Shown piece by piece: positions 6,646 to 41,531 of a DNA stretch of 64,000 nt. Numbering within the stretch: position 1 is the stretch's first letter; each line of letters starts with the position of its first letter. Both the position numbers and the translations under genes were made by a program. The notes beneath the pieces were generated by a model. That model was not told where the DNA came from. It searched no databases and saw only the letters and a list, made by a program, of their open reading frames with translations. Origin of the DNA: Paracoccaceae bacterium (lineage in GTDB: Bacteria > Pseudomonadota > Alphaproteobacteria > Rhodobacterales > Rhodobacteraceae); NCBI GenBank assembly GCA_035324325.1, contig DAOLBY010000001.1, positions 4,453 to 68,452 of the forward strand, written 5' to 3'.

Positions 6646-8757
6646 TCAGAATCCGAAAAGCCGCATGTCGCCGACGGCCTTCCGCGCGAAACCTCCGGCA
6701 TCGGCTTCCGGGGCCCATCCCAGGACGCGCTTGGCGCGATCGTTGCGGAAGGGCGAGAGATGCGCGCGCGAATACCAGTCGGCGCGCGAGGGGGCCGTCA
6801 GCCCCCGACGCCGCAGGGCATATCGCTTGAGCAGGTACTTGAGGCGATCCGCGAGATAGAAGGAGGCCAGATACCCCGGAACGACGCGGATGCGGGTGCC
6901 GGTGACAGCGTGGATTGCGTCGAAGTAGTCGCGGGCGGTCATCAGGGGTTCGCCGACGAGGTTGAAGGACTGCCCCTCGATTGCCGGCGTTGCGGACATG
7001 CGCAGGAGCGCATCGGCGACATCCTCGTTGAGGACGAACGGCAGGATGTTGTGGCCGCTACCCCAGATGCGGACGGCGCCGGCACCGTGCCAACGTCCGA
7101 TCCCCCAGTGCTGGAGCGGGCCACCCGCGCCGACGACGATCCCCGGGCGGGCGATGACGAGCGGCAGGCCGCGCTGCCGGTGCAGCTCCAGCAGGCGTTC
7201 CTCGCACAGCGCCTTGGAGCGGGCGTAGAGATTGCGGGCATCCATCGGTCCGAAGGGCGTGTCCTCAGTGATCTGGCGGCCCGGGTCGGAGGCGTCGTAG
7301 GACGCGATCGTGCCGGTGTAGATCAGCCGGCGGACCCCCGCCTCCAGGACGGCTCCGGCGATCCGTTCGGTCACCGCGACGTCATTGCGCAGGTAGTCCT
7401 CCCATGTCGCCTCGGTGGCCTTGGCGAGGTGATAGACGGTTTCGATGCCTGCCATGGCGACGGCAAGCCCGGCCTGATCCGTTAGCCGGACCGGCACGAT
7501 CTCGACCCGGTTGCCGAGATCGGCAAAGGGGTTCGACAGCCCGCGGCTGGCAACGCGAACCCTGCGGCCGCCTTCCGCCAGGCACCGGACCAGGGCGCGG
7601 CCGATGAAGCCGGTTCCGCCGATGACCAAGACATCGGACGGCGGTGATGCGGCCCGGCGCTCCGGGGTCGCCGCAACGGGCATCGCCCCCGCAGCCGGCA
7701 GGAGGGCGATCGTCTCCTCGATGGCGCCGATCACTCGGGCCGCCGTCGCCCCTGCAAACCGCGGGGCGATCGCCCGGCCTTCCCCCACCGCCGCATGGAA
7801 TTCGGTCAGCATGCCGCGGAACCCGAGGGCATAGGGCGACTTGCGGTTAAGCGACGCGGCCTGCCGCGCGCCGTTGCGCAGGCCCTCGACCAGATGCTGG
7901 CCGGCCAGCGCCAACTGGGCCCGGAGCGGATTGAGCACGATGTCGGATGCGTTCGGCCGCTCGACGATCAGGGTATCCGCCCCGAAGTCGAGGCGCGCTG
8001 CCGCGGCAACGCCGCGCAGCGAGACAGACCGGTCCTCGACCGCCTCGACCAGCGACAGCGACAATGTGATATCGGTCACGCCGGCCCGGCCGAGGATCGT
8101 CCAGACCTGCGGAAGCCTGCCGCCCCCGGGAATGTCGATGGGCTTGCTCAGATGGAGCGTGACATCCCGCATGGGGCCGAAGAGATCCTCGGCGAAGGCA
8201 TAGAGATGCGGGCCGAGTTCCATCAGAAGGTTCTGCGGCTGGCGCAGCATCCAGAGCCCGAACGGCCCCGAACGCAGGGGCGCGAGCGGAAAATGCCAAC
8301 GGACGTCGGCCCGATCGACGCGGCCGATGTCTCCCGCCTCGAGCAGCCGTCGAAGCCGCCGGTACGACGGCAGGGCGAGGAAGTTGTGGTTCACCGCCAC
8401 GATCCGGCCGGCATTCTCTGCGGCCCGCACGATCTCGTCGGCCTCGGCGCGCGAAAGGGCGAAGGGCTTCTCGAGCAGCACATGCGCGCCCGCCTGCAGC
8501 GCTGCGAGGGCATGGTCGCGATGCAGATGCGGTGGCGTCAGAACATGCACGGCGTCAAGCCGCTCGACGGCGAGCATCCGCTCCAGCCCAGCGTAACTGG
8601 CGGCACCATGCGCGGCGGCGAGGACGGCGGCGGCCTCGGGCTGGGTGTCGCAGACCGCAACCAGCCGGGTGCCCGGAACGGATGCGAGCGCTTCCGCGTG
8701 CCAAGGCGCGATATAGCCCGCACCGACGAATCCCGTCCTGATCTCCCGCCCGCGCAT
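6646..8757 (-). CDS. Two-domain fusion: Gfo/Idh/MocA oxidoreductase (N) plus NAD-dependent epimerase/dehydratase (C)
   Basis: 703-aa ORF. The N-terminus has IRTGFVGAGYIAPWHAEAL (a Rossmann motif of Gfo/Idh/MocA type). A second Rossmann motif, VLVIGGTGFIGRALVRCL, sits at about aa 375 and is followed by an SDR-epimerase-like region. Last gene of a minus-strand operon with 4-nt or short gaps. Confidence 0.8.
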   Translation of the reverse strand: MRGREIRTGFVGAGYIAPWHAEALASVPGTRLVAVCDTQPEAAAVLAAAHGAASYAGLERMLAVERLDAVHVLTPPHLHRDHALAALQAGAHVLLEKPFALSRAEADEIVRAAENAGRIVAVNHNFLALPSYRRLRRLLEAGDIGRVDRADVRWHFPLAPLRSGPFGLWMLRQPQNLLMELGPHLYAFAEDLFGPMRDVTLHLSKPIDIPGGGRLPQVWTILGRAGVTDITLSLSLVEAVEDRSVSLRGVAAAARLDFGADTLIVERPNASDIVLNPLRAQLALAGQHLVEGLRNGARQAASLNRKSPYALGFRGMLTEFHAAVGEGRAIAPRFAGATAARVIGAIEETIALLPAAGAMPVAATPERRAASPPSDVLVIGGTGFIGRALVRCLAEGGRRVRVASRGLSNPFADLGNRVEIVPVRLTDQAGLAVAMAGIETVYHLAKATEATWEDYLRNDVAVTERIAGAVLEAGVRRLIYTGTIASYDASDPGRQITEDTPFGPMDARNLYARSKALCEERLLELHRQRGLPLVIARPGIVVGAGGPLQHWGIGRWHGAGAVRIWGSGHNILPFVLNEDVADALLRMSATPAIEGQSFNLVGEPLMTARDYFDAIHAVTGTRIRVVPGYLASFYLADRLKYLLKRYALRRRGLTAPSRADWYSRAHLSPFRNDRAKRVLGWAPEADAGGFARKAVGDMRLFGF

Positions 8758-20582: not shown

Positions 20583-22388
<1,806 letters not shown>

Positions 22389-22477: not shown

Positions 22478-25400
22478 TCAGAGATCCCAGACCTCGACCG
22501 TGACCGTCGCCCGGGTATAGTTGCCCATGTCGTCGGCAGCCCAGTAGTGGAAGCTGTCGGTGCCGGTGAAGCCGTGGTTCGGCCGGTAGAGCAGCGTCCC
22601 GTCCGCCTGCTGGAAGACATCGCCGTTGCCCGGATCGGTGAAACCGTCCACGGCCAGGTGGCGGTTCTCGGGATCGCGGTCGTTGGCCAGCACGTCGATC
22701 AGCACGTCGAGCCCCGCGACGGTGGCGGCGAAGTCGTTCTGGACGACGGGCGCGGCATTGCCCGGATCATAGCGCCCGTTGTGGGGGACGCCCCAGCTGT
22801 TCAGGTCCCCGTCGGAGATGTTGAGCGTGACCAGGTAGCTGAATTTCAGGAGTTCGCCCGTCGCCCGGTCGGCGACGAGATCGGGGATCAGCGCCACCTT
22901 CCGGCCATCGGCCAGCGTGTAATAGCCCGTCGACCGCAGGAGATCGGGCACCTCCCAGCGATAGATCGTCTGCGGTTCCCATGCCATCTGCCTGGAGGTA
23001 CTCCCGAGCGAGTCGGTCTTGGTGCCGGAGAGCACGAGATCCTGATGGACTGCGAGGGTGACGCTGCCCTGGACGAAGCCCAGCCTGCCCTCGACCAGGT
23101 CGTCCGAACTCATGATCTGGTGGCGGGCGGCGTTGAACCCCTGATAGGCGGTGCCGACACCGGTCATCTCGACATCGATGAGGACGATGCCGAACTGGTT
23201 GTCGGGCACGAAGAAGGTCGGCTGGCGGGAAACGTCGACGCCGGTCCGGAAGCCGTCGATGCTCAGACCGTTCATCACCATGCCGAAGGCATTGCTGCCC
23301 AGGACGAGACCGGCCTGCGCCTCGAACCAGCCGCCGCTGCGGGTGCCGATCAGGTCGAAGTCGAGCATCGTGTAGTGCCCGGTATAGCTGATGTCGGTGC
23401 CCTGGCGGGTCTCCCAGTTCAGGAACCCGTCGAGGACCGTGCGGACGTCGTGGTATTGCGCCGCCACCCCCTTGATGACGATCAGCCCGATCTCGGTTCC
23501 GAAGGCCTCGTTGTCGCGGAAGCCCTGGATCGGCGCCTGGTTGACGGTCACCGTACTTCCGCCATAGCCGATCTCGGGATGGTCGAGGTTCGCCGTCAGC
23601 GGATTGGTCGGGGCCGAGCGGTGCATCCAGACATAGCCATGCGTGGTGTTGACGGCGACGTTCTCGGCCGCCTCGACCAGGCGTCCGGCGAAGAAGAAGC
23701 CGTCGCCGGTGCGGCCGTTGTCGTGGCGTGGCAGGTCATTGGCATGCTTGACCTCCCATTCCCCCCAGCCGATCCCTTCCGAACGGATCGCCATGTTGCG
23801 CAGCCAGATGCCGGTCTCGTCGCCGTCCTCGGCGGCGAAGGCGGCGCCGAAGACGTCGAAGGCCACGTTCTCGATGAAGTCGGCATGGCTCGAATGGTGC
23901 ACGAAGCCCCAGCCGGGCGCGCCCGAGACCGTGTTGCCGAGCGCGATCGCCGGGTTCTCCTGGTCGAGCGTGCCGGTCTTGTGGAAGTGGAAGGAATAGC
24001 GGCCCTTGATGTTGCTGTCGGCCGAGACCGACGAGAGCGCGCCGAGATCGAAGGCCGGGCGTGACTTGTCGGTGCGGCCGAGATCGTCGAAGGCGGCATA
24101 GCGCACGTCGACATCGTCGCTGTGCATGAACATCACGTGGCCGCGGTGATGCACCGCGGTGTCGGCGCCGTTCTCGCTCGCGAAGGTGATGTTGCGCGTC
24201 ATGTTGGCGACATAGGCGAAGAGGTCGTCGCGCGGCGTGTCGTGGTTGTGGACCAGCGCGCGGTCGAGCGTCACCGTGCCGCCGTTGATGGCGACGATCC
24301 GCACCTCCTCGTCCTGGCTCTCGTGATGGACGACCCGGCGCAGCGTGTTGTCCCAGGCCCAGCCGGTCTTGTGCGTGCCGCTGACCACCAGCGTGTCGCC
24401 GACCTGCCAGCCGGTGGGCACCTCGGCCAGCGTGATCGTGGTGTCGCCGCGCATCGGGGCCTCGGCGACCTTGAGGAAGGCGGTCTTCTCGGCACCGTGG
24501 ATCTCCACCGCGCCATGCGAGACCAGCCCGCGCGAGACCAGCATCGGATCCCAGGCGACGTTGATGTTGCCGTTGTCGGCGAACAGGATCTGGACGTCGA
24601 CCCCGGCCTCGATCGGGCGGGCGGCGGTGCCGATCTCGAGCCGGCCGCTGGGCGCCACCACCATCGTGTCGATCACCAGCCGCGTGTCGCGGTCGGTGGC
24701 GAAGGACAGTTCGCCGTCGACCCGCAGGGTGAAGAGCGCGGCATCGCTCTCGCCGTCATAGGTCACCGAGATGCCCTCGGGGATCAGCGCCCGTGCGCCC
24801 TCGCCGGGGATCCGGCCCTGCCACCAGGTCGCCGGATCGAACCAGTCGCCGTCGGCGACGGCGACATGCGTGGCCTCCGCCCGCGGCACCAGCGACAGCA
24901 CCCGGATGTGTTCGTTGGCCATCGCCGCATTGTCGCCATGGGCATGGGTCTCGGGCTGCGCCATCACCGCGGCCACGAAGGCATCGGCCTCGGCCGGATC
25001 CATCGGCGGCGTCGGGCCGTGGTCGTGGCCGCCCCCCGTATCGCCCCCCGTATCGCCCCCCGTATCGCCGCCGCTGCCGCCGCTGCCGCCGTCGCCGGGC
25101 AGCGGGTCGGGGTCGTGGTCATGCCCGTCGCCGGGCAGCGGGTCGGGATCGCTGCCGCAGCCGCAGAGGCAGAGGCAGACGTTGCCGCCATCCTCCGGGC
25201 AGGGCCCCACCTCGCCGGCGTCGATCGGCCCGGCATGGCTGAGGCTCGGGACGCCGACCACGGCGCGCAGCCCGTCGCTGTCGGGCCCCTGCCATTCGAA
25301 GCGCAGGCTCTGGACGCCGAAGTTCTCGAAATAGCGGACCTCGACCTGGTGGGCGCCGGCCTCGAGATCGAGCGTGACCGCGCGTTCGACCGTGGCATGG

Positions 25401-26767
25401 GCGCCGTCGTTGTCGATCACCTGCCGGCCGTTGACGAAGAGCACCGCGCCGTCGTCCGAGGTCAGGAAGAAGGTGTAGCGGCCGGCATTGACCACGTTCA
25501 GGTCGCCGGCGAAGCGTGCGGCGAAGAGGTCGCCGGGGCCGCCCTGCCAGAAGGCCGCCTCGGACTGCAGCCAGTTCAGCGAGGCCACCGTGCCGACGGC
25601 AGCCGGCGTGGCGGTGAAGTCGATCTCGGCCAGGCGCGCCACCGGGGCAGCGAGGGCGAAATACTCGGCATAGAGCCCGGGCCGCAGGGCATCGCCGCTG
25701 CTGCCGTCCTGGTGGCTGAGGCTGCCCTGCGAGATCAGCGCGCGGGCGCCGAAGCTGTCGGGGCCGCGCCATTCCAGCCGCAGGCTCTGGACGCCCCAGT
25801 TCTCGAAGTAGCGGACCTCGATCTGATGGGCGCCGGAGGCGAGGTCGAGCGTGACCATGCGCTCGACCGTGGCATGGGCGCCGTCGTTGTCGATCACCTG
25901 CTGGCCGTTGATGTAGAGCGCCGAGCCGTCGTCCGAGGTCAGGAAGAAGGTGTAGCTGCCGCCGCGCTCGACGTTGAGCTGGCCGGAATAGCGCGCGGCG
26001 AAGAGGTTGATGGGCCCGTCCTGCCAGAACGGCGCGTCGGAGCGCATCCAGTCGAGCCGGTCGACGATGCCGGTGGCCGCGGGCGTGGCGGTGAAGTCGA
26101 TCTGGGCGAGGCTTGCCACCTCGGCGGACAGCCGGAAATAGCTGGCCTGGAGACCGATCTTGCCCGGTTCGGGTTCGGGCTGGGGTTCCGGATCGGGCTC
26201 GGGGGTCGGACCGGGCTCGGGGGTCGGACCGGGCTCGGGCACCGGATCGGGAACCGGATCCGGATTGACCGGAATGGGCTTCATGCTGACCGCCGAGCCG
26301 TCGAGCATCACGCGCTGGTCGCCGGTGTCGGCGCCCTTCCATTCCAGCCGCAGGCTGTGCCGCCCGGTCTGGTCGAAATAGACGACCTCGATGTCATGCA
26401 CCCCGGCCTCGAGCCGGAGGGTCACCCTGCTCTTTTCGATCGTGTCCGAGGACAGGTCGCTGGCGACCAGGAGCACCTCCTGGCCGTTGATGCGCAGCGC
26501 CGCCACATTGTCGGTGCGCAGGAAGAAGGTGTACCTGCCACCGGTGGTGATCGTGAGATCGCCGCTGAAGCGGGCGGCGAAATGATTGACCGCCCCGCCT
26601 TCCCAGAGCGAGGTCTTCATGAGCCCCCAGTGGACCGCGTCGAAGGTATCGACCGCGACCGGGGTCGAGAAGTCGATCTCGTCGAGGCGCTTGATGCTCG
26701 CCGGGATGGTGAAGAACTCGGCCAGGAAGCCGCGCAGGGCCCCGGTTCCCACGGTCTGTATGCTCAT
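22478..26767 (-). CDS. Giant secreted-type protein: 3x PA14, Pro-rich and Cys/His/Asp-rich linkers, G8 domain, parallel beta-helix region, C-terminal cadherin-like domain
   Basis: 1429-aa ORF. PA14-like modules at aa ~10-160, 205-345 and 362-505 (YTFFL.SDDG...L.INGQ.V...LEW.G). G8-like block GDWFDPATWWQGRIPGEGARALIPEG...LRVDGELSF...LEIG at aa ~636-760. C-terminus has VLANDRDPE...GTDSFHYWAADDMGN. No N-terminal signal peptide (MSIQTVGTGALRGFLAEFF). Confidence 0.85.
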   Translation of the reverse strand: MSIQTVGTGALRGFLAEFFTIPASIKRLDEIDFSTPVAVDTFDAVHWGLMKTSLWEGGAVNHFAARFSGDLTITTGGRYTFFLRTDNVAALRINGQEVLLVASDLSSDTIEKSRVTLRLEAGVHDIEVVYFDQTGRHSLRLEWKGADTGDQRVMLDGSAVSMKPIPVNPDPVPDPVPEPGPTPEPGPTPEPDPEPQPEPEPGKIGLQASYFRLSAEVASLAQIDFTATPAATGIVDRLDWMRSDAPFWQDGPINLFAARYSGQLNVERGGSYTFFLTSDDGSALYINGQQVIDNDGAHATVERMVTLDLASGAHQIEVRYFENWGVQSLRLEWRGPDSFGARALISQGSLSHQDGSSGDALRPGLYAEYFALAAPVARLAEIDFTATPAAVGTVASLNWLQSEAAFWQGGPGDLFAARFAGDLNVVNAGRYTFFLTSDDGAVLFVNGRQVIDNDGAHATVERAVTLDLEAGAHQVEVRYFENFGVQSLRFEWQGPDSDGLRAVVGVPSLSHAGPIDAGEVGPCPEDGGNVCLCLCGCGSDPDPLPGDGHDHDPDPLPGDGGSGGSGGDTGGDTGGDTGGGHDHGPTPPMDPAEADAFVAAVMAQPETHAHGDNAAMANEHIRVLSLVPRAEATHVAVADGDWFDPATWWQGRIPGEGARALIPEGISVTYDGESDAALFTLRVDGELSFATDRDTRLVIDTMVVAPSGRLEIGTAARPIEAGVDVQILFADNGNINVAWDPMLVSRGLVSHGAVEIHGAEKTAFLKVAEAPMRGDTTITLAEVPTGWQVGDTLVVSGTHKTGWAWDNTLRRVVHHESQDEEVRIVAINGGTVTLDRALVHNHDTPRDDLFAYVANMTRNITFASENGADTAVHHRGHVMFMHSDDVDVRYAAFDDLGRTDKSRPAFDLGALSSVSADSNIKGRYSFHFHKTGTLDQENPAIALGNTVSGAPGWGFVHHSSHADFIENVAFDVFGAAFAAEDGDETGIWLRNMAIRSEGIGWGEWEVKHANDLPRHDNGRTGDGFFFAGRLVEAAENVAVNTTHGYVWMHRSAPTNPLTANLDHPEIGYGGSTVTVNQAPIQGFRDNEAFGTEIGLIVIKGVAAQYHDVRTVLDGFLNWETRQGTDISYTGHYTMLDFDLIGTRSGGWFEAQAGLVLGSNAFGMVMNGLSIDGFRTGVDVSRQPTFFVPDNQFGIVLIDVEMTGVGTAYQGFNAARHQIMSSDDLVEGRLGFVQGSVTLAVHQDLVLSGTKTDSLGSTSRQMAWEPQTIYRWEVPDLLRSTGYYTLADGRKVALIPDLVADRATGELLKFSYLVTLNISDGDLNSWGVPHNGRYDPGNAAPVVQNDFAATVAGLDVLIDVLANDRDPENRHLAVDGFTDPGNGDVFQQADGTLLYRPNHGFTGTDSFHYWAADDMGNYTRATVTVEVWDL

Positions 26768-27413: not shown

Positions 27414-28970
27414 TCACAGCCCCGGCACGAAGCGCGGCAGGGGGCGCAGGACCTCGGCCATGGCCTGCTGCAGGCGGGCCTCGGCCTCGGCCGCGCCGCC
27501 GGCGCCGATCGGCACGATCAGGCGCACCAGCGCGCTGTCGCTGCGCCCGTTGGTCAGCTTGCCGGCGAGCAGCTGCAGCTTGGCGGTCAGGCCCGAGGCG
27601 GTGCGCCGGCCCTGCTGCTCGAACCAGTAGTAGACCAGCATCCGCTCGGTGCCCTTCTGGATCACCGCGCGGTTGAGGCTGAAGGCGCCCTCGACGGGAT
27701 GCTGCGCCTCGATCCGGCGCAGTTCGGCGATCTCCCAGCCGCCGCCGGGCAGGCAGACCTCGGGCGAATGCACGCCGCCCTGCAGGTCGTCGCGGTACCA
27801 GGCGAGGAAGAGGTCGACCGGCGCCCCGCCCGCCCGGGCGAGCAGCACCGAATGGTAGTCGTCGGCGGCCAGGATGCGCTCGACATCGGGTTCGAGCATG
27901 CGGTGCGGGCCGGCCTGCCAGTCGCCCAACTGCGCCGGGAACAGCGCGAAGGGATCGCGCGTCACCGTCACCGGCGGGCGCCCCGCCGCGGCCAGCGCCC
28001 GCGACGGCTCGATCAGCCGCAGCCGCAGCGCCTGGGTGCCGAGCCCCGCGGTGTCGAGGTCGAGCGCCTCGGCCAGGCCCGGCCGGTCGCGGCGCAGCCG
28101 CAGCATCACCCAGGCCAGCGCGAACAGCAGCAGCACGCAGGACAGGAAGATCACCCAGCCCTCGAAGAAATGGCTGAAGCCCTCGACATGCTCCATCCCC
28201 CAGCGGTCCACGATCACCCCGGCCAGCGCGATCCGCACCGAGTTCATCAGCACCGTGATCGGCGCCGCCGAGACGAGCAGCACCGCCTTGTGCCACATCG
28301 GCCCGCGGTAGAGCACCGCGAAGATGTAGCTGAAGGACAGGATCGGAAACAGGTAGCGCAGCCCCGAGCAGGCCTCGGCCACATGCAGCTTGTAGACCCC
28401 GAGGTCGATGATGTTGCCCTCGAGGAAGACCGGCACGCGCAGCAACTGCAGGAACCACACGCCAAGCTCGGAGGAGATGCCCTGCAGCCAGGTCGAGACC
28501 CCGTAGTAGAGCGCCCCGGGCAGCGGCAGCATGTAGACGAGATGCAGCACCGGCGGCCAGAACCCCCGCCCCTGCCGCCAGCCGAACGCGATCAGCAGGA
28601 TCGCCCCGGCCCAGAGGATCAGCCCGTAGGCGACGATGTCGCCGATGCCGAGCAGCTGCCCCGCCGCGCCGAGCGCCAGCGCCAGGACGAGCAGTGCCAG
28701 CCCCGGGCCGCGGTCGGTCACCGGGCCGGGGATCACCGGCTCGCCCTTCAGCTGGCGCAGGAACAGCAGCAGCGACAGCAGCGGGATCAGCGGCCCGTGG
28801 CTGTATTCCGGCAGCGCCCAGGCCCGCAGCAGTTCGGCCAGCCCGTCGCGGAAGAACAGCCCCGCCCCGGCGACGGCCAGCAGCAGCCAGCCCACACCGG
28901 GGGTGACAAGCCCGCCGAGACGGCGCGGCGCGCGGCGGGAGGGGGCCGGGGAGGGGCCGGTCACGGACAT
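27414..28970 (-). CDS. xrtD: Exosortase fused to an EpsI-family domain (XrtD-like, VPLPA-CTERM-specific by context)
   Basis: ATG 28970..28968; an alternative ATG lies 20 codons upstream at 29030. Exosortase hallmarks are PEYSHGPLIP, catalytic Cys in HVAEACSGLRYL, Arg in VLMNSVRIAL and His in FSHFFEGW. The C-terminal ~200 aa has the EpsI signature HSPEVCLPGGGWEI...YYWFEQQGR. The symbol is assigned from the adjacent VPLPA-type cargo, not from an alignment. Confidence 0.85.
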   Translation of the reverse strand: MSVTGPSPAPSRRAPRRLGGLVTPGVGWLLLAVAGAGLFFRDGLAELLRAWALPEYSHGPLIPLLSLLLFLRQLKGEPVIPGPVTDRGPGLALLVLALALGAAGQLLGIGDIVAYGLILWAGAILLIAFGWRQGRGFWPPVLHLVYMLPLPGALYYGVSTWLQGISSELGVWFLQLLRVPVFLEGNIIDLGVYKLHVAEACSGLRYLFPILSFSYIFAVLYRGPMWHKAVLLVSAAPITVLMNSVRIALAGVIVDRWGMEHVEGFSHFFEGWVIFLSCVLLLFALAWVMLRLRRDRPGLAEALDLDTAGLGTQALRLRLIEPSRALAAAGRPPVTVTRDPFALFPAQLGDWQAGPHRMLEPDVERILAADDYHSVLLARAGGAPVDLFLAWYRDDLQGGVHSPEVCLPGGGWEIAELRRIEAQHPVEGAFSLNRAVIQKGTERMLVYYWFEQQGRRTASGLTAKLQLLAGKLTNGRSDSALVRLIVPIGAGGAAEAEARLQQAMAEVLRPLPRFVPGL

Positions 28971-29697: not shown

Positions 29698-30351
29698 ATG
29701 TTCGCGCTGAATGGGATCAAGGCACTGGCCGCGGCCCTCGTCCTGTCGGGGGGCCTGGCCGGCCAGGCCGGGGCGGTCACCTACCATTTCGACAACATCA
29801 CCGGCAACAACGCCGAACATGCCGCGGCCGGCGCCGCGCAGCTGTTCCTCGATGTCGACCTGGTGGACGACGCGGTGCATTTCGTGTTCCGCAACGCCGG
29901 ACCGCTGCAGATGACGGTCGCCAACCTCTACATCGACCACGGCACCACCGCGCTCATCCAGAACGCCTCGGTCGGCGCGGCGTCGGAGGGGGTGGAGTTC
30001 GCGGGCGGCGGCACGCCCGTCAACGTGCCCCGCGGCAACACCGTCGGCTTCTACGCCGACGACACCTTCTACACCACCCGGCCCCGGGTGCATTACGGGA
30101 TCAACGTGCTCGAGTTCCAGACGATCGTCTACGAACTCGTCGCCGGGACGACCTTCTCCGACCTGATCGCGGCGCTCGATGCGGGCAACCTGCGGGCCGG
30201 CCTGCATGTGATCAACTTCATCGGCGGCGGCCGGGAAAGCTTCGTCAGCGGGGCGCAGGTCGTCCCCATCCCGCTGCCGGCCACGGGCCTGCTGCTGGTC
30301 GGCGCGCTCGGCGGGCTGGTGCTGCTGCGCCGCCGCCGTCCGGCGGCCTGA
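29698..30351 (+). CDS. VPLPA-CTERM sorting-domain protein, paralogue 1
   Basis: ATG 29698 (SD GGGAGCG). Signal peptide MFALNGIKALAAALVLSGGLAGQAGA. C-terminus VPIPLPATGLLLVGALGGLVLLRRRRPAA, i.e. motif, TM helix and Arg cluster. Confidence 0.85.
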   Translation: MFALNGIKALAAALVLSGGLAGQAGAVTYHFDNITGNNAEHAAAGAAQLFLDVDLVDDAVHFVFRNAGPLQMTVANLYIDHGTTALIQNASVGAASEGVEFAGGGTPVNVPRGNTVGFYADDTFYTTRPRVHYGINVLEFQTIVYELVAGTTFSDLIAALDAGNLRAGLHVINFIGGGRESFVSGAQVVPIPLPATGLLLVGALGGLVLLRRRRPAA

Positions 30352-30783: not shown

Positions 30784-31437
30784 ATGTTCGCGCTGGATCG
30801 GATCAAGACATTGGCCGCCGTGGCGGCACTCGTGCTTTCGGGGGGCCTGGCGGAGCGGGCCGAGGCGGTCACCTACAACTTCGAGAACATCACCAACAAC
30901 AACGCCGCGGATGCCGCGGCCGGCGAGGCGCAGCTGTTCCTCGACGTGAATCTGGTCGGCGGCGCGGCGCATTTCGTGTTCAGCAACCTCGGCCCGCTGC
31001 AGATGACGATCGCCAACATCTACTTCGATTTCGGCCTCACCAGCCTGCTCGGCGGCGGATCGGTCGGCGCGGCCTCGCCGGGGGTAACCTTCGTGGCGGG
31101 CGGCGCGCCCCCCGACGTGCCTGGCGGCGCGCCCATCGGCTTCACGTCCGATGACCGCTATTCCGCGACCAACCCCGCACCGCACAACGGGGTCAACGTT
31201 CCCGAGTTCCAGACCATCGTCTACGAACTCCTGGCCGGGACGACCTTCGCCGACCTGATCGCGGCGCTCGATGCGGGCAGCCTGCGCACCGCCATCCATG
31301 TGATCAACTACGCAAGCGGCGGCAGCGAGAGCTTCGTGAACGCCCCGACCCCGATCCCGCTGCCGGCCACGGGCCTGCTGCTGATCGGCGCGCTCGGCGG
31401 GCTGGTGCTGGTGCGGCGGCGCCGCCCGGCGGCCTGA
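30784..31437 (+). CDS. VPLPA-CTERM sorting-domain protein, paralogue 2
   Basis: ATG 30784 (SD GAAGGAG). Signal peptide MFALDRIKTLAAVAALVLSGGLAERAEA. C-terminus TPIPLPATGLLLIGALGGLVLVRRRRPAA. Collinear similarity to paralogue 1 along its whole length. Confidence 0.85.
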   Translation: MFALDRIKTLAAVAALVLSGGLAERAEAVTYNFENITNNNAADAAAGEAQLFLDVNLVGGAAHFVFSNLGPLQMTIANIYFDFGLTSLLGGGSVGAASPGVTFVAGGAPPDVPGGAPIGFTSDDRYSATNPAPHNGVNVPEFQTIVYELLAGTTFADLIAALDAGSLRTAIHVINYASGGSESFVNAPTPIPLPATGLLLIGALGGLVLVRRRRPAA

Positions 31438-31491
31438 GGGCGCGCGGGGGGTCCCCGCGGCCCGACCCGGCAACACAACCAGGATACGGCG

Positions 31492-31515
31492 CAGGCGGCC
31501 CCCCAGGGCCGCCTG
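31492..31515 (+). terminator. Hairpin downstream of VPLPA paralogue 2
   Basis: Perfect 9-bp stem CAGGCGGCC / GGCCGCCTG with a 6-nt loop. The T-tract is poor (TCGCGTTCC). Confidence 0.4.
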
Positions 31516-31551
31516 TCGCGTTCCGGGGGGACGGGGTTCGGGAAGCCGGCG

Positions 31552-31647
31552 TCAGCAGCAGGGCGGGCGCGGGCCGTCGAAGCCGCGCAGCAGCATCGCC
31601 GCGCAGAGGCAAAGGCCGAGGCCGATCAGGACAGCGCCGGTCAGCAT
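31552..31647 (-). CDS. Possible 31-aa hydrophobic peptide (below ORF-track size cutoff)
   Basis: ATG 31647..31645 is preceded by GAAGGGGAGGCGGGCGA (strong SD). Translation MLTGAVLIGLGLCLCAAMLLRGFDGPRPPCC then stop. No family recognised. Confidence 0.3.
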   Translation of the reverse strand: MLTGAVLIGLGLCLCAAMLLRGFDGPRPPCC

Positions 31648-32013
31648 TCGCCCGCCTCCCCTTCGCGACGCGCCTGCCACCGCGGCAGACGGAACCGGAT
31701 CCAGCCAAGCGCCGAATCATGGCGGAACCCGGGCGCCGCCGTGGCCTTGCCGTGGCCTTGCCCGCGAACCGCCGGCACGTTGACGCCGCGGCAACAGATA
31801 CACCCCTTGCGTGAAACTGTCGCCGCACCGGCCGTGCCCGCACAACCCCTGCCTGAAAAGCGCCCGCCCGGAAAGGTTTCGCTTTCTCCGCGCGGGGCGA
31901 TCGGCCATTCTCTGCCCGAGGTCGCGTCCGTTCGGGCGGGCCTTTGCCACAAGCCGATAGCGTGACCCATAGCGCGACCCGATGTGCGACAACCTGATTT
32001 CGGAGTGCAAGGA

Positions 32014-32742
32014 ATGAATGTGACCAGTACCCTGCGCGGCGGCATTCTGGCGCTCGCGCTCGCCTTCGGGGCCGGAACGGCCGGGGCCACGCCCATCCAG
32101 GTCGAACAGCAGGTGACCGGCGGCTGGAACGCGGTCTTCGGCGGCAACGGCTATGCCAATGCGACGATCAGCGGCCCGGCGCTGGCCGGCGGATCCTCGG
32201 TCACCGTCGCCGCGGGCGGCTTCGCGCTGACCGCCGAGGGGCTCGGCGATTTCGTGGCCTTCTGCCTCGACATCAACACCTGGCTCTCGCTGCCCTCGTA
32301 TTATGCCGTCACCGAAACGCCCTTCTCGGGCGGGCCGGCGCTGCTGACCACCACGCAGCGCAACAACATCCAGGCGCTGTTCAACACCGGATACGCGGGG
32401 CTGAACCTCGGGTCGAACACCGATTCCGCGGCCTTCCAGATCGCGCTCTGGGAAGTGCTCTACGACAGTTCCGGCAGCCTCAACCTCGGCGCGGGCAATT
32501 TCATCGTGTCGAGCACGACGGCGGTGATCAACCGCGCCGCGGGCCTCCTGGCCGGGCTCGCCGGTCCGGCGACCGGCGTCTACGAACTGACCTGGCTGCA
32601 GTCGCTCGACGGCCCGGATGCCAACAGCTACCGCGACAGCCAGAACCTCGTCACCGCCACGCCGATCCCGCTGCCGGCAGGCGGGCTTCTCCTGGTCTCG
32701 GCGCTCGGCCTGATGTTCCTGCGCCGGCGCCGGACCGCCTGA
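32014..32742 (+). CDS. VPLPA-CTERM sorting-domain protein 3 with thioester-domain-like Cys and Gln motifs
   Basis: ATG 32014 (AAGGA just upstream). Signal peptide MNVTSTLRGGILALALAFGAGTAGA. C-terminus TPIPLPAGGLLLVSALGLMFLRRRRTA. Internal DFVAFCLDINTW and DSAAFQIALWEVLYD. Confidence 0.8.
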   Translation: MNVTSTLRGGILALALAFGAGTAGATPIQVEQQVTGGWNAVFGGNGYANATISGPALAGGSSVTVAAGGFALTAEGLGDFVAFCLDINTWLSLPSYYAVTETPFSGGPALLTTTQRNNIQALFNTGYAGLNLGSNTDSAAFQIALWEVLYDSSGSLNLGAGNFIVSSTTAVINRAAGLLAGLAGPATGVYELTWLQSLDGPDANSYRDSQNLVTATPIPLPAGGLLLVSALGLMFLRRRRTA

Positions 32743-32776
32743 GCCGCCATCGGCGGACAGGGCTGGGGGACACCAC

Positions 32777-32800
32777 GGGGGCGCCTTCGGGCGCCCTTTT
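32777..32800 (+). terminator. Rho-independent terminator after the third VPLPA-CTERM gene
   Basis: GGGGGCGCC-TTCG-GGCGCCC followed by TTTT. Lies between convergent genes. Confidence 0.6.
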
Positions 32801-32833
32801 CCGTTCCGCCGCCCCCCGTCCCCGTCCCCGCCC

Positions 32834-33442
32834 TCAGGGCCCGCCTCGCCGCCGCCGCAGCAGCACCAGCGCCGTCGCCGCGATCAGGACGGGCCCCGTC
32901 CATTCCAGCAGCGTGTTGGCGCGCAGCCCCAGGACCGTCCCCGGCACCGTCCCCGGCACCGGCAGGCCGAGCATCGCGTCGAAGCCGTGGAAGCCGACGG
33001 CGCGCATCATCACGAAGCCGGTGACGAAGACCAGCCCCGCGACCGGCAGGGCCGAGCGCGCCCAGGTGCCGCGCAGCACCGCCAGCAGCACCGCCAGCAG
33101 CACGAGCCCCAGGCCGGCGATGGCGATCAGGAAGGCCGCCTGCACCGGGCGGCGGCCCTCGTACCAGCCCTGCGCCAGCGCCGTGCAGCGCCCCGCCGCG
33201 GTCAGCGCCGACTGCAGGTCGAGCTGCTTGTTGACCGCCAGCGCCGCCATCAGCACCGCCACCAGCCCCCAGAAGGCGCGCTCGCGCCCGCGGCTGGCGC
33301 GGGGGAAGGGCGCGGCGCGGGCCAGCGCCAGCGCCAGCAGCGCCGTCGCCGCATAGACCGCGACCGTCGTCCAGCCCTGCCAGCCGGGGTCGCCGATCAC
33401 CGGGCGCCAGGTCTCGAGGGTGCAGGCCAGGATGCCGCGCAT
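32834..33442 (-). CDS. Hypothetical polytopic membrane protein
   Basis: ATG 33442..33440 (MRGILACTLETWRPVIGDPGWQGWTTVAVYAATALL...). 5-6 hydrophobic segments. The upstream part of track ORF 32834..33841 is in the repA 3' region. No family recognised. Confidence 0.55.
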   Translation of the reverse strand: MRGILACTLETWRPVIGDPGWQGWTTVAVYAATALLALALARAAPFPRASRGRERAFWGLVAVLMAALAVNKQLDLQSALTAAGRCTALAQGWYEGRRPVQAAFLIAIAGLGLVLLAVLLAVLRGTWARSALPVAGLVFVTGFVMMRAVGFHGFDAMLGLPVPGTVPGTVLGLRANTLLEWTGPVLIAATALVLLRRRRGGP

Positions 33443-33465
33443 GCCCCCTGCCCCGCCCGGGCCGC

Positions 33466-34437
33466 TCAGCCGCCGGCCCGGGTGGCGCGCAGCCAGCCCA
33501 GGAAGGCGCGGTCGGGGCTGCGCAGCCGCGGCCGGCCCGACCCGTCCCAGAAGCCGCGCCAGGCGGCGGCGAGGGCATGGACATCGGCGCCGGGGGCCAG
33601 CGCGCGGGCGGCATCCAGCGTCTCGGGCGCCAGATGCGGCCCCTCGCCGGGCAGCAGCACCGGCGCGCGCGGCGCCACGCGCAGGATGTCGCCGGGCATC
33701 TCCTCCAGCCGGTAGTCGGGCAGGCGGTCCTCGCGGATGATCTCGCGCAGCATGGCGCGGAAGACGCGCAGCGGGCTGGCCGAGCCCGACTTCTTGGCCA
33801 GCGTGGCGACCGAGACGCGCCATTCGGGCTGCCGGCCGCAATGCTTGCGCGACAGTTCGTAGATGCGCCGCTCCAGCGGCTTGCGCAGGCCGAAGTAGTC
33901 GCGGCTGAGCGTCAGCACCGAGCGCGACAGCACCGCCTGGAACAGCCAGTCCGACAGCGTGACCGAGACCGAGACCATGCGCCCGGCGCGGGTGCGGCGC
34001 ACGATCTCCCAGGCCTCGATCAGGCCGAAGCCGCTGGTGATCTCGGCCTCGCCGGTGACGATGTTGGTGGTGATGCGCGTGCCCACCAGCCGCTCGAAGG
34101 CCTCGCGCAGCCGGGCATAGCCGTCGCCCGAGGTCTCGCGGTGGGTGGCGGTCAGCAGGTCGTGCGCGGTCAGCGTCAGCCGGCGCGAGACGGCGCGGCC
34201 GGCGTTCAGCGCCGCCATCAGCTGGCTGATGCAGAAGATCAGGATGTCGGCATCGAAGATCGTCGCCCGGCCGCGCACCGAGGGGGTGACGGTGATCGAG
34301 CAGCCGTTGTGCTCGTAGCTGAGCACGCGGCGGTCGGGCCGGGTCGAGAGCGAGAAGAGCGGATGCTCCATCGAGGCGAGGTCGTGCTTGGGCACCGCCG
34401 CGAAGAGGTCGCAGACGAAGAAGTCCTGCGTCACCAC
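33466..34437 (-). CDS. repA: Plasmid replication initiator RepA (replication initiator protein A family)
   Basis: Family blocks FVCDLFAAVPKHDLASMEHPLFSLSTRPD..LSYEHNGCSITVTPSVRGRATIFDADILIFCISQL. The GTG at 34437 is preferred because the 69 codons up to the ATG at 34644 have clearly lower GC3 (about 83% versus about 97%) and are Arg/Gly-rich. The longer ORF 33466..34644 remains possible. Confidence 0.8.
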   Translation of the reverse strand: MVTQDFFVCDLFAAVPKHDLASMEHPLFSLSTRPDRRVLSYEHNGCSITVTPSVRGRATIFDADILIFCISQLMAALNAGRAVSRRLTLTAHDLLTATHRETSGDGYARLREAFERLVGTRITTNIVTGEAEITSGFGLIEAWEIVRRTRAGRMVSVSVTLSDWLFQAVLSRSVLTLSRDYFGLRKPLERRIYELSRKHCGRQPEWRVSVATLAKKSGSASPLRVFRAMLREIIREDRLPDYRLEEMPGDILRVAPRAPVLLPGEGPHLAPETLDAARALAPGADVHALAAAWRGFWDGSGRPRLRSPDRAFLGWLRATRAGG

Positions 34438-37960: not shown

Positions 37961-39718
37961 ATGACCAGAACCTCCCCCGCCGCCCAGGGGCCGGGCCCTG
38001 CCCCCGGACCGGAGGAGCTGCGCGCCGCGCGCGGCAGCGGCCGGGTGCTGATCTTCTGGGCCTTCGTCTTCTCGGTCTTCGTCAACCTGCTGATGCTGAC
38101 CGGCCCGCTCTACATGCTGCAGGTCTACGACCGGGTGCTCGCGTCGCGCTCGGTGGCGACGCTGGTGGCGCTGTCGATCCTGGCGGCGATGCTCTACGCG
38201 CTGATGGCGGTGCTCGACTTCGCCCGCGGCCGCGTCATGGGCCGGGTGGGCGCGCGGTTCCAGAGCGCGCTCGACGCCCGCGTCTTCGAGGCCTCGCTGC
38301 GCCGCGGGCAGCAGCCGCGCGACCGGGCGGCCGCGGCGGCCGCGGGGCGCGACCTCGACGCGGTGCAGACCTTCCTGACCTCGCCAGTGCTGCTGGCGGT
38401 GATGGACATGCCCTGGACCCCGGTCTTCATCGCCGCGATCTTCCTGTTCCACCCGATGCTCGGCTGGCTGGCGGTGGCCGGCGGGGTGGTGCTGGTGGCG
38501 CTGACCCTGATCGGCCAGGTCGCCGGGGCGGGCCGCGTGCGCCAGGCGCAGATGGCGACCCAGGCCTCGCATGCCTTCGCCGACGAGGCGCGCGCCGGGT
38601 CCGAACTGCTGCTGACCCAGGGCCTGCGCCGCAGCATGACGCGCCGCTGGGTCGACCGCCGCGCCGATGCCCTGGCGCGCAGCATGGCCTCGGCGGATCT
38701 GACCGGGGGCCTGACCTCGCTGACCAAGTCCTTCCGGCTGTTCCTGCAGTCGGCGATGCTGGGCCTCGGCGCCTTCTACGTGCTGCGGGGCGAGATGACG
38801 CCGGGTTCGATGATCGCCGGCTCGATCCTGATGGGCCGGGCGATGGCGCCGATCGAGCAGGCGATGGGGCAATGGCCGGTGCTGCAGCGCGCCCGCGCCG
38901 GCTGGGACGCGCTCGGCCGCTTCCTGGCGCAGGTGCCGCCGCCGGCGCTGCGCACCGAACTGCCGGTGCCGCGGGCGCATCTGGCGGTCTCGGGCCTCGT
39001 GGTGGTGCCGCCGGGCACCCGCACCCCGGTGCTGCGCAACGTCACCTTCCAGGTCCAGCCGGGCCAGGCGCTCGGGGTCATCGGGCGGTCGGGCTCGGGC
39101 AAGTCGACGCTGGCGCGGGCGCTGCTCGGCTACTGGCCGGCGGCCTCGGGCGAGATCCGGCTGGACGGCGCCACGCTCGACCAGTACGACCCCGAGCGGC
39201 TGGGCCAGCACATCGGCTACCTGCCGCAGACGGTGACGCTGTTCTCGGGCACGGTGGCCGAGAACATCGCCCGGATGGCGGCGCGCCCCGATCCCGAGGC
39301 GGTGATCGCCGCCGCCCAGGCCGCCAATGCCCACGAGATGATCCCCCGCCTGCCCGAGGGCTACGACACGATGCTGACCGGGCAGGAAAGCCAGCTTTCG
39401 GGCGGCCAGCGCCAGCGCATCGCCCTGGCGCGGGCGCTCTACGGCGATCCGGTGCTGCTGATCCTCGACGAGCCCAATTCGGCGCTCGACGCCGAGGGAT
39501 CCGAGGCGCTGAACCGCGCGGTGCGCCGCTTCAAGTCGGCGGGCAAGGCGGTCATCATCATGACGCACCGGCCGATGGCGATCGCCGAATGCGACCAGCT
39601 CATGGTGGTCGAGAACGGCGCGGTGGCCGCCCTCGGGCCGCGCGACGAGGTGATGGACCGGATGCTGGCCAATGCCGGCCCCGTGCAGCAGACGCTGCGC
39701 TCGCGCGAGGTGATCTGA
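37961..39718 (+). CDS. Type I secretion system ABC permease/ATPase (PrtD/AprD type, no C39 domain)
   Basis: 585-aa ORF. Motifs LMLTGPLYMLQVYDRVL, Walker A GRSGSGKST, LSGGQRQR, LLILDEPNSALD. Confidence 0.9.
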   Translation: MTRTSPAAQGPGPAPGPEELRAARGSGRVLIFWAFVFSVFVNLLMLTGPLYMLQVYDRVLASRSVATLVALSILAAMLYALMAVLDFARGRVMGRVGARFQSALDARVFEASLRRGQQPRDRAAAAAAGRDLDAVQTFLTSPVLLAVMDMPWTPVFIAAIFLFHPMLGWLAVAGGVVLVALTLIGQVAGAGRVRQAQMATQASHAFADEARAGSELLLTQGLRRSMTRRWVDRRADALARSMASADLTGGLTSLTKSFRLFLQSAMLGLGAFYVLRGEMTPGSMIAGSILMGRAMAPIEQAMGQWPVLQRARAGWDALGRFLAQVPPPALRTELPVPRAHLAVSGLVVVPPGTRTPVLRNVTFQVQPGQALGVIGRSGSGKSTLARALLGYWPAASGEIRLDGATLDQYDPERLGQHIGYLPQTVTLFSGTVAENIARMAARPDPEAVIAAAQAANAHEMIPRLPEGYDTMLTGQESQLSGGQRQRIALARALYGDPVLLILDEPNSALDAEGSEALNRAVRRFKSAGKAVIIMTHRPMAIAECDQLMVVENGAVAALGPRDEVMDRMLANAGPVQQTLRSREVI

Positions 39719-39719
39719 G

Positions 39720-41531
39720 ATGACGCAGCCCCCCGATCCCCGGGCCGGATCCGCCGCGGCGGTGCCGCCACGGCCGTCCGCCGGCACCCTGCCCGACCGC
39801 GCCCTGCCCGACCGCGCTCCGGGGCCGGCCCCGTCACCGGCCGCGTCCCGCGGCGACCACCCGCCCCTGCCCCGCACCGTCCCGCAGGCGCCGGCCCGGC
39901 CCGGCCCCCCGGGCCAGCCCGCCGCAGCGGGGGCCGCGGCGAAACCCGGACCCGCCGCCGCGCCGGCGCCGCCGCCGCCCTCCCCCGCGGTCTCCGGCTC
40001 CGCCCCGGCGGGCCAGGCGGCGCGGATGCAGACACGGATGCAGACACGGATGCAGACGGGCACCCCGGCCTCGCGCCTGCCGCCCGCCGCCCCGCCGCCC
40101 GGCCCCCCCGGCGGTTCGGGCGGCCCCGGCGGTCCGGGGCAGGGCGGTCCGGGGCAGGGCGGCTCCGGCTCCGGCGGTTCCGGCCCGGGCGACACCGCCG
40201 AGGCCCCGCTGCGGATGCCGCCGCCGATGGCCACCGCGATCCCGCCGCCGGCGGAATGGAGCGCGCGCGGCGCGCTCTCGTCGGGCATCGCGGCGCTGGT
40301 GCTGCTGGTCGGCGGGCTCGGCTTCTGGGGCAGCCAGGCCGAGATCTCGGGCGCGGTGCTGGCCTCGGGGATGATCCAGGTCGAATCCAACCGCCAGGTG
40401 ATCCAGCATCCCGACGGCGGCGTGGTCGCCGCCATCCTCGTCAAGGAGGGCGACACGGTGGCGCCGGGCGACGTGCTGATCCGGCTCGACGGGTCGCGGA
40501 TCCAGTCCGAACTGGCGATCGTCGAGGGCCAGCTGCGCGAGATCGCGGCCCGCCAGGCGCGGCTCGAGGCCGAGCGCGACGCCGCCGGCGAGATCGTCTT
40601 TCCCGCCGAACTGCTGGCCACCGCCACCCCCGAGATGCGCCGCCAGGTCGAGGGCGAGCAGGCGCTGTTCGCCGCCCGCAACGAGGCGCTGGCCCAGCAG
40701 GAGGCGCTGCTGGCCGAGCAGAACGCCCAGATCGGCAACCGCATCGCCGGCACCGAGGCGCAGATCGAGGCGCTGCGCACCCAGGGCGGGCTGATCGGGC
40801 GCGAGCTCGAGGACCAGCAGCGGCTCTACGACCAGCGCCTGGCCCCGGCCGGCCGGCTGCTCGAACTGCAGCGCGAGGAGGCCGGGATCCGCGGCCAGAT
40901 CGGCCGGCTCGAGGCCGAGATCGCCGAATTGCGCGGCCAGTCCGCCGCCAACGGCATCCAGCTCGTGCAGCTCAAGACGCAGCGCCGCGAGGAGGCGGTG
41001 GCGACGCTGCGTGACCTGCAGTTCCGCGAGGTCGAACTGGCCGAGCGCCGGCTGGTGCTGACCGAGACGCTGTCGCGGCTCGAGGTGCGCGCGCCGGTCG
41101 GCGGCATCGTCTACAACAGCCAGATCTTCGCGCTGCAATCGGTGGTGCAGCCGGCGCAGGCGATCATGTTCATCGTGCCGCAGGACCAGCCGATGGTGAT
41201 CCAGGCCCGGATCGAGGCGATCAGCATCGACGAGGTGCGGCCGGGGCAGGAGGCCTCGCTGCGCTTTGCCGCCTTCGACCAGCGCCGGGTGCCCGAACTC
41301 TTCGGCGCGGTGACGCGGATCGCCGCCGATGTCTCGCAGGACGAGGCGACGGGGATGCACTACTACGCCGTCGAGGTCGCGCCCTGGCCCGAGGAACTCG
41401 ACAAGCTCGGCGACCATGTGCTGCTGCCGGGCATGCCGGTCGAGATCTTCCTCAAGACCGGCGACCGCACGGCGCTGGCCTACCTGGTGCAGCCGCTTAC
41501 CGCCTTCTTCGACCGCGCCTTCCGCGAATAG
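39720..41531 (+). CDS. HlyD-family T1SS periplasmic adaptor with ~190-aa Pro/Ala/Gly-rich N-terminal extension
   Basis: ATG 39720 is 1 nt after the ABC stop (TGAGATG). The core is from ALVLLVGGLGFWGSQAEISGAVLASGMIQVE... with coiled-coil and beta-barrel regions, ending in LVQPLTAFFDRAFRE. The extension has high GC3, so it is probably translated. Confidence 0.9.
   Translation: MTQPPDPRAGSAAAVPPRPSAGTLPDRALPDRAPGPAPSPAASRGDHPPLPRTVPQAPARPGPPGQPAAAGAAAKPGPAAAPAPPPPSPAVSGSAPAGQAARMQTRMQTRMQTGTPASRLPPAAPPPGPPGGSGGPGGPGQGGPGQGGSGSGGSGPGDTAEAPLRMPPPMATAIPPPAEWSARGALSSGIAALVLLVGGLGFWGSQAEISGAVLASGMIQVESNRQVIQHPDGGVVAAILVKEGDTVAPGDVLIRLDGSRIQSELAIVEGQLREIAARQARLEAERDAAGEIVFPAELLATATPEMRRQVEGEQALFAARNEALAQQEALLAEQNAQIGNRIAGTEAQIEALRTQGGLIGRELEDQQRLYDQRLAPAGRLLELQREEAGIRGQIGRLEAEIAELRGQSAANGIQLVQLKTQRREEAVATLRDLQFREVELAERRLVLTETLSRLEVRAPVGGIVYNSQIFALQSVVQPAQAIMFIVPQDQPMVIQARIEAISIDEVRPGQEASLRFAAFDQRRVPELFGAVTRIAADVSQDEATGMHYYAVEVAPWPEELDKLGDHVLLPGMPVEIFLKTGDRTALAYLVQPLTAFFDRAFRE

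Follow-up and report, generated by a model that had tools for sequence, protein, structure and literature searches.

A distant thioester-domain homologue with a putative exosortase sorting tail, encoded near XrtD on a plasmid-like replicon of an alphaproteobacterium

The window, that is, the whole stretch of 64,000 nucleotides that was analysed, corresponds to C100:4453-68452 of a 70,168-bp contig (C100) and carries a gene for a protein that resembles bacterial thioester domains (TEDs), together with a VPLPA-CTERM-specific exosortase and further exosortase cargo (Table 1). The TED-like open reading frame (ORF) has a GC3 of 0.88, in line with the coding sequence of the host genome, and GGAG and AAGGA occur 5' of its ATG. 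A promoter and terminator scan (sigma-70) of 31400-33000 found nothing. Residues 1 to 26 are predicted, by direct reading of the sequence, to be a Sec signal peptide, and residues 1 to 22 have low pLDDT values in the AF2 model of the full-length protein. C84 is the sole cysteine of the protein, which has no histidine. It belongs to AFCLDINTW (residues 82 to 90) and is located at the end of strand E78-84 of the model. The stretch AAFQIALWEVLYD (residues 139 to 151) contains FQIALWEVL, which lies within helix H135-150 and has Phe where known TEDs have Thr, and Q210 is found just ahead of strand E212-217. The first-pass annotation had singled out AFCLDINTW and the Gln motif of the helix; both are present, but Q142 lies 58 residues past C84 and not about 68. 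Among all 17,999 six-frame stop-to-stop ORFs of at least 100 aa in the 3.56-Mb genome, that two-motif pattern is unique to this ORF, as is the three-motif TED pattern, and the motif pair is confirmed to be real and no chance pattern.

Table 1. Positions in the window of the TED-like gene, its parts and its exosortase-related neighbours
Feature	Coordinates	Strand	Remarks
Gene for TED-like, putatively exosortase-sorted protein (P0001)	32014..32742	+	242 aa, stop codon within coordinates
Putative Sec signal peptide, residues 1-26 (MNVTSTLRGG-ILALALAFGAG-TAGA/T)	32014..32091	+	n-region basic, hydrophobic core, AxA-like site
Mature TED-like domain, residues 27-217	32092..32664	+	Beta strands, three core helices, beta strands; AF2, Foldseek, Pfam TED
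[YFL]CΦζ motif AFCLD, with C84 as predicted thioester cysteine (nt 32263-32265)	32257..32271	+	Conservation, alignment to SfbI-TED Cys109
Central-helix motif AAFQIALWEVL (Q142, W146), counterpart of TQxxΦWΦxζ	32428..32460	+	Supporting motif, not predicted as bond partner
ΦQζΦΦ-type motif SQNLV, with Q210 as predicted thioester glutamine	32638..32652	+	Conservation, alignment to SfbI-TED Gln261
C-terminal sorting signal PIPLPA, hydrophobic helix, RRRR	32662..32739	+	Degenerate VPLPA-CTERM; helix H222-241 in model
XrtD, VPLPA-CTERM-specific exosortase with fused EpsI domain	27414..28970	-	TIGR04152; start approximate, 28970 or 29030
Two tandem paralogous VPLPA-CTERM cargo genes	29698-30351, 30787-31437	+	TIGR03370, 24.8 and 29.0 bits

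The exosortase XrtD is encoded 2.3 kb upstream of the TED-like gene on the opposite strand. It scores 595 bits against TIGR04152 (cut-off, 400) and matches the Pfam families Exosortase_EpsH and DUF3485. Two tandem VPLPA-CTERM paralogues of 217 and 216 aa, which are 67% identical and contain neither a cysteine nor a Pfam domain, lie between XrtD and the TED-like gene. The idea that these neighbours are diverged TEDs was rejected (hhalign probability of 0.1%, no Cys), and the conserved 5' leader blocks of the two paralogues are not present upstream of the TED-like gene. The TED-like protein had been counted as the third VPLPA-CTERM protein of the cluster, and the neighbouring XrtD and the architecture of the tail agree with this, but the isolated tail scores 10.4 bits against TIGR03370, under the cut-off of 25.35. 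Because homologue tails pass that model (33.1 bits for P0023, 26.2 for P0003, and 34.2 for P0028), the tail is regarded as a degenerate VPLPA-type signal. The match to TIGR01167 (LPXTG-type) is weak and spans the transmembrane and arginine part only. Both a stalk of isopeptide or ester domains and an LPXTG sortase signal are absent from the protein, which consists of a single domain. The TED part ends about 6 residues ahead of the sorting motif, and this anatomy without a stalk is unusual.

Immediately downstream, the XrtD/TED-like region is flanked by a plasmid maintenance module that encodes RPA-type RepA, ParA, and ParB, and the RepA is 73 to 78% identical to plasmid RepA proteins of Rhodovulum, Roseobacter, and Cereibacter. 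The opening 54 nt of C100 recur 3 nt before its end, and the replicon therefore appears to be circular, with a size of about 70 kb. The G+C content of the contig is 74.1%, versus 70.5% for the genome. C100 likely represents a circular plasmid of that size in complete or nearly complete form. A tblastn search of the PLSDB plasmids with the TED-like protein gave no match. The surroundings of the cluster include a 1,429-aa PA14x3/G8/beta-helix/cadherin-like protein (22478-26767, minus strand), an ABC exporter (20583-22388, minus strand), an ABC and HlyD pair (37961-41531, plus strand), and glycosyltransferases. With these flanks, the exosortase cluster and the plasmid partition genes have the appearance of a surface and exopolysaccharide island carried on a plasmid. 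Between the TED-like gene and repA, a 335-aa ORF (32834-33841, minus strand) has no Pfam or NCBIfam match, is present in only 1 of 80 related loci, and resembles a multi-pass membrane protein in its C-terminal half.

The sole Pfam match of the TED-like protein is the TED family PF08341, with residues 81 to 153 aligned on profile positions 1 to 74 of 102 (17.5 bits; E = 0.0058), and this is also the sole TED match in a six-frame scan of the genome. Sub-threshold matches to the same family were obtained for 18 of 26 close homologues and 27 of 149 diverse homologues, the best E value among the 149 being 2.4e-4. When family profiles were compared with all PDB sequences, the SfbI-TED (5a0l) ranked first (E = 0.11 with profile A1 and 0.021 with A2) and the N-terminal TED of Cpa (4c0z) was also found (E = 1.5). 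No adhesin beyond the SfbI and Cpa TEDs and no enzyme was recovered in that search, and a PDB search with the single sequence returned noise only. All of these sequence-level matches lie under curated or conventional thresholds (17.5 versus a gathering threshold of 22 bits for Pfam; best PDB E value of 0.021). In the PDB alignments, F-A-x-C-L-D is paired with YQAYCFN and sQNLVt..VP with YQNLLSAEYVP of the SfbI-TED and Cpa-TED. C84 is thereby aligned on Cys109 of the SfbI-TED, and Q210 on Gln261 of SfbI (DYQNLLSA) and the equivalent QNLLSA of Cpa. The aligned residues in the 5a0l chain, C49 and Q201, are 152 apart, which is the spacing of the published pair Cys109/Gln261 (PMC4450167). The first VP of VPLPA is matched in these alignments by the VP that closes the SfbI and Cpa TED constructs.

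Structure prediction led to the same family. A Foldseek search of the PDB with the full-length AF2 model (pLDDT, 83.4) yielded four significant matches, all of them TEDs. The mature domain (residues 27 to 217) was modelled from a 78-sequence alignment cut out of genome loci (A3), with a pLDDT of 92.8 and a pTM of 0.91. The eight best PDB matches of this model are TEDs without exception, including Cpa 4c0z (E = 6.8e-6), CpTIE 5a0d, SfbI 5a0l (TMq, 0.51), FNE 5dcq, BaTIE 6fwv, and EfmTIE86 6fwy, and the next match has an E value of 0.4. Foldseek probabilities are 0.97 to 1.0 for the best five matches. With modest TM scores of 0.35 to 0.51 over all eight, the fold match is limited to topology, and the rmsd values are large (5.8 to 10 Å against class-I TEDs and about 18 to 19 Å against class-II TEDs). 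The order of elements in the model, six beta strands, three long helices, and a terminal beta hairpin, fits the published description of TEDs (PMC4450167). Given these TM scores and a sequence identity to solved TEDs of about 8 to 15%, the protein is a remote relative and not a regular member of the TED family. Since the Pfam, PDB-profile, and fold searches converge independently, we are highly confident that it is a distant TED homologue. The resemblance of the motif pair to TEDs, proposed in the first-pass annotation, is thus borne out at the level of homology and fold; of the checks proposed there, the profile search did match the TED family, but under its threshold, and the structure prediction returned TEDs as all of the best matches.

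The key residues of the three TED-type motifs are almost invariant in the family. Among 149 diverse representatives, in which column identity averages 17%, C84 is kept in 148, Q142 in 148, and W146 and Q210 in all 149, as are P219 and P221 of the sorting motif. D86, near C84, is also conserved, and the family alignment has no conserved His column. Two natural variants lack the cysteine. The homologue L075 of Actibacterium ureilyticum LS-811 (7794-8438) reads FLAWAIDPF and SGANLVSAT at the two sites, with Ala in place of both C84 and Q210, but its FQLALWE helix motif, which holds the counterpart of Q142, is intact and its VPVPA tail is kept. In the representative P0061, Arg replaces the Cys and Q210 is kept. 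The joint loss in L075 is supportive and not conclusive, since it is a single event and P0061 is a counter-case. The L075 protein offers a ready natural 'dead' control. Another homologue (L077, 7992-8603) ends after the third helix/strand region (KFLDATMMPVPTYRIW, then a stop), with the Gln motif and the sorting tail gone, and is probably a frameshifted pseudogene.

The glutamine that would bond with C84 is probably Q210 of SQNLV, judging from the alignments, and not Q142, which the first-pass annotation had proposed as the thioester partner, having overlooked SQNLV. Only two residues are fully conserved in characterized TEDs, namely, the [YFL]CΦζ Cys and the Gln that belongs to a weak ΦQζΦΦ motif on a beta strand (PMC4450167). 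The TQxxΦWΦxζ motif of the central helix occurs in most TEDs but not all, and its Gln and Trp are dispensable for thioester formation, as mutants of Cpa demonstrated (PMC4450167). Q142 is therefore assigned to the helix motif rather than to the bond. A C84-Q142 thioester could draw on the conservation of Q142, which is as strong as that of C84, and on TED crystal structures, in which the helix Gln is near enough to hydrogen-bond the Cys backbone (PMC4450167). We nevertheless consider this pairing hardly plausible, because the C-terminal ΦQζΦΦ Gln is the partner in every characterized TED, Cpa mutants in either the helix Gln or the Trp still form the thioester, the profile alignments match Gln261 of SfbI with Q210 and not with Q142, and L075 lost C84 and Q210 together and retained Q142. 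Solely from the alignment to the bonded residues of 5a0l, C84 and Q210 are predicted to be adjacent in the structure.

Our preferred reading is that the protein is a single-domain, stalk-less relative of class-I bacterial TEDs, in which C84 and Q210 form a thioester and which XrtD sorts to act as a covalent adhesin, and we assign this a probability of roughly 0.6. The most serious alternative, which we think unlikely although it deserves consideration, is a TED-derived fold with no reactive thioester, in which C84 and Q210 serve packing and the protein binds non-covalently or acts as a structural component of the matrix. Its similarity to proven TEDs is remote, and the absence of the Cys in L075 and P0061 implies that the fold tolerates the loss. 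On the other hand, near-absolute conservation of C84 and Q210 against a mean column identity of 17% is hard to attribute to packing, both residues were replaced together in L075, and all of the twelve diverse putative TEDs that have been tested experimentally formed the bond (PMC4450167). One invariant Cys in an exported protein, with the conserved D86 nearby, might also belong to a small secreted enzyme of the peptidase or transglutaminase type, as a catalytic or redox residue, or form intermolecular disulfides. This is highly improbable, as the significant structural matches are all TEDs with no enzyme fold among them and neither the protein nor any conserved column of the family supplies a His; a Cys-His enzyme was rejected because the protein has no His. 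A chance resemblance to TEDs in a non-homologous PEP-CTERM-type protein is barely conceivable. The motifs are short and the E values of all sequence matches to TEDs are weak, but only 1 of the 17,999 ORFs in the genome has the motifs, and three independent lines of evidence, from the Pfam HMM and from PDB searches by profile and by fold, point to TEDs alone.

Relatives of the protein are encoded at 225 or more loci in GTDB contigs (one genome per species), mostly in Rhodobacterales, including Roseovarius, Ruegeria, Sedimentitalea, Paracoccus, and Gemmobacter, with others in Roseibium/Labrenzia, Parvularcula, and one Burkholderiales MAG. Among representatives at 50% identity, 4,128 clusters match at an E value of ≤1e-10 and 509 at ≤1e-30, and the best 150 matching clusters are all single-domain proteins of 186 to 327 aa. 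The 10,295 matches at ≤1e-3 (about 31 bits) are inflated, because matches to the tail only reach 31 to 35 bits, and the family size is therefore taken as 4,128. In the public annotations, relatives are named 'VPLPA-CTERM sorting domain-containing protein' or 'hypothetical protein', and the passenger domain of these cargo proteins is modelled in neither NCBIfam nor Pfam. The first-pass annotation had called an exosortase-anchored TED in an alphaproteobacterium unusual, which is true of the published literature but not of genomes, given about 4,100 clusters and at least 225 loci. In the taxonomic family of the host, the gene was found in only 4 of 25 sampled genomes (25 genera), which indicates that it is accessory. 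XrtD lies within 8 kb at 15 of 80 related loci and is enriched in carriers (3 of 4 carriers versus 4 of 37 non-carriers among 41 related genomes; Fisher p = 0.012). However, one genome (G022, 99% complete, 2 contigs) encodes an intact homologue (L085, 190-855, minus strand; G022:C1 around 1145792-1146442) with AFCVD, FQVALWE, SQNLV, and a VPVPA tail, and has no detectable exosortase of any type (no match to PF09721 or TIGR04152). Either XrtD is not strictly needed or the assembly lacks a plasmid.

We infer signal-peptide cleavage, thioester formation, exosortase processing, and the nature of the target in the following scheme. The protein would be exported by Sec, and on folding the thiol of C84 would attack the side-chain amide of Q210 in the C-terminal beta strand, so that ammonia leaves and an internal thioester forms spontaneously. 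Q142 and W146 in the FQIALWE helix may pack on the Cys and hydrogen-bond its backbone, as in known TEDs. The IPLPA-helix-RRRR tail would at first anchor the protein in the inner membrane. Cleavage at the P-x-P motif by the neighbouring XrtD would then pass it on to the cell surface or the exopolysaccharide layer. To our knowledge, the chemistry and the acceptor are unproven for exosortases in general. At its destination, the thioester could react with a primary amine of a target, such as a protein lysine, a polyamine, or an amino sugar, to give a covalent amide, and this link would glue the cell or its matrix to the partner. Only about 6 residues separate the Gln strand from the motif at which the exosortase would cleave, and the thioester may for this reason not target foreign partners. 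A wider proposal, which we put forward as a doubtful one, is that the harpoon chemistry extends beyond Gram-positives, with thousands of single-domain TEDs being sorted by exosortases in environmental diderms and possibly tethering covalently to amine groups in the exopolysaccharide or matrix of their own cells.

If the bond forms, covalent and possibly pH-tunable adhesion would reach marine and freshwater alphaproteobacteria and the larger PEP-CTERM world, and a large class of exosortase cargo, mostly without known functions, would gain a biochemical role. A compact, stalk-free TED of 190 residues would also be usable in protein engineering. Tethering to the cells' own matrix, if true, would supply the long-missing anchoring or cross-linking chemistry of floc and biofilm systems of the PEP-CTERM/exosortase type. 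In the literature searched, TEDs are described as a feature of Gram-positive bacteria (Firmicutes and Actinobacteria), as late as October 2026 (PMC4450167, PMC13685950), no paper joins a thioester domain with PEP-CTERM or an exosortase, and the present family receives no mention.

Among known systems, the three-motif signature is shared with class-I TEDs (SfbI 5A0L, Cpa 4C0Z, CpTIE 5A0D/5A0G, and FNE 5DCQ; PF08341), as are the layout of beta strands, three helices, and beta strands and the N-terminal position of the domain after a secretion signal. The Cys-Gln spacing is 126 residues here, compared with 129 to 153 in solved TEDs. Unlike class-I TEDs, the protein has FQ for TQ and scores below the Pfam gathering threshold, is only about 12 to 15% identical to the solved TEDs, lacks isopeptide and ester domains as well as fibronectin-binding repeats, and ends in an exosortase-type tail rather than an LPXTG/sortase signal. 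It also differs in its setting, which is a diderm alphaproteobacterium, a plasmid-like replicon, and a neighbourhood of exopolysaccharide and surface-protein genes. The Foldseek matches to class-II TEDs (BaTIE 6FWV, SaTIE 6FX6, EfmTIE86 6FWY, and TIEpLS20) are weaker but specific. At 191 aa, the domain is too short to accommodate the additional beta-sandwich or slipknot insertion of that class, and the model contains none. As TIEpLS20 illustrates, TED proteins may be encoded on plasmids and lack a sortase signal (PMC8092201). With VPLPA-CTERM/XrtD cargo (TIGR03370/TIGR04152) and PEP-CTERM proteins, the protein shares the plan of the tail, namely, a P-x-P motif, a membrane helix, and an Arg cluster; XrtD adjoins and homologues are named VPLPA-CTERM by NCBI, whereas its own tail is under the cut-off. 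The same Cys-Gln thioester chemistry is known from complement and alpha-2-macroglobulin (A2M; GCGEQ), including the bacterial A2Ms of Gram-negatives, which, in the literature searched, are the only thioester proteins described so far in Gram-negatives. A2M-type proteins are large and multidomain, with a thioester that is activated by proteolysis. Their fold and motif are unrelated to those of the present protein, and their Cys and Gln are three residues apart (CGEQ).
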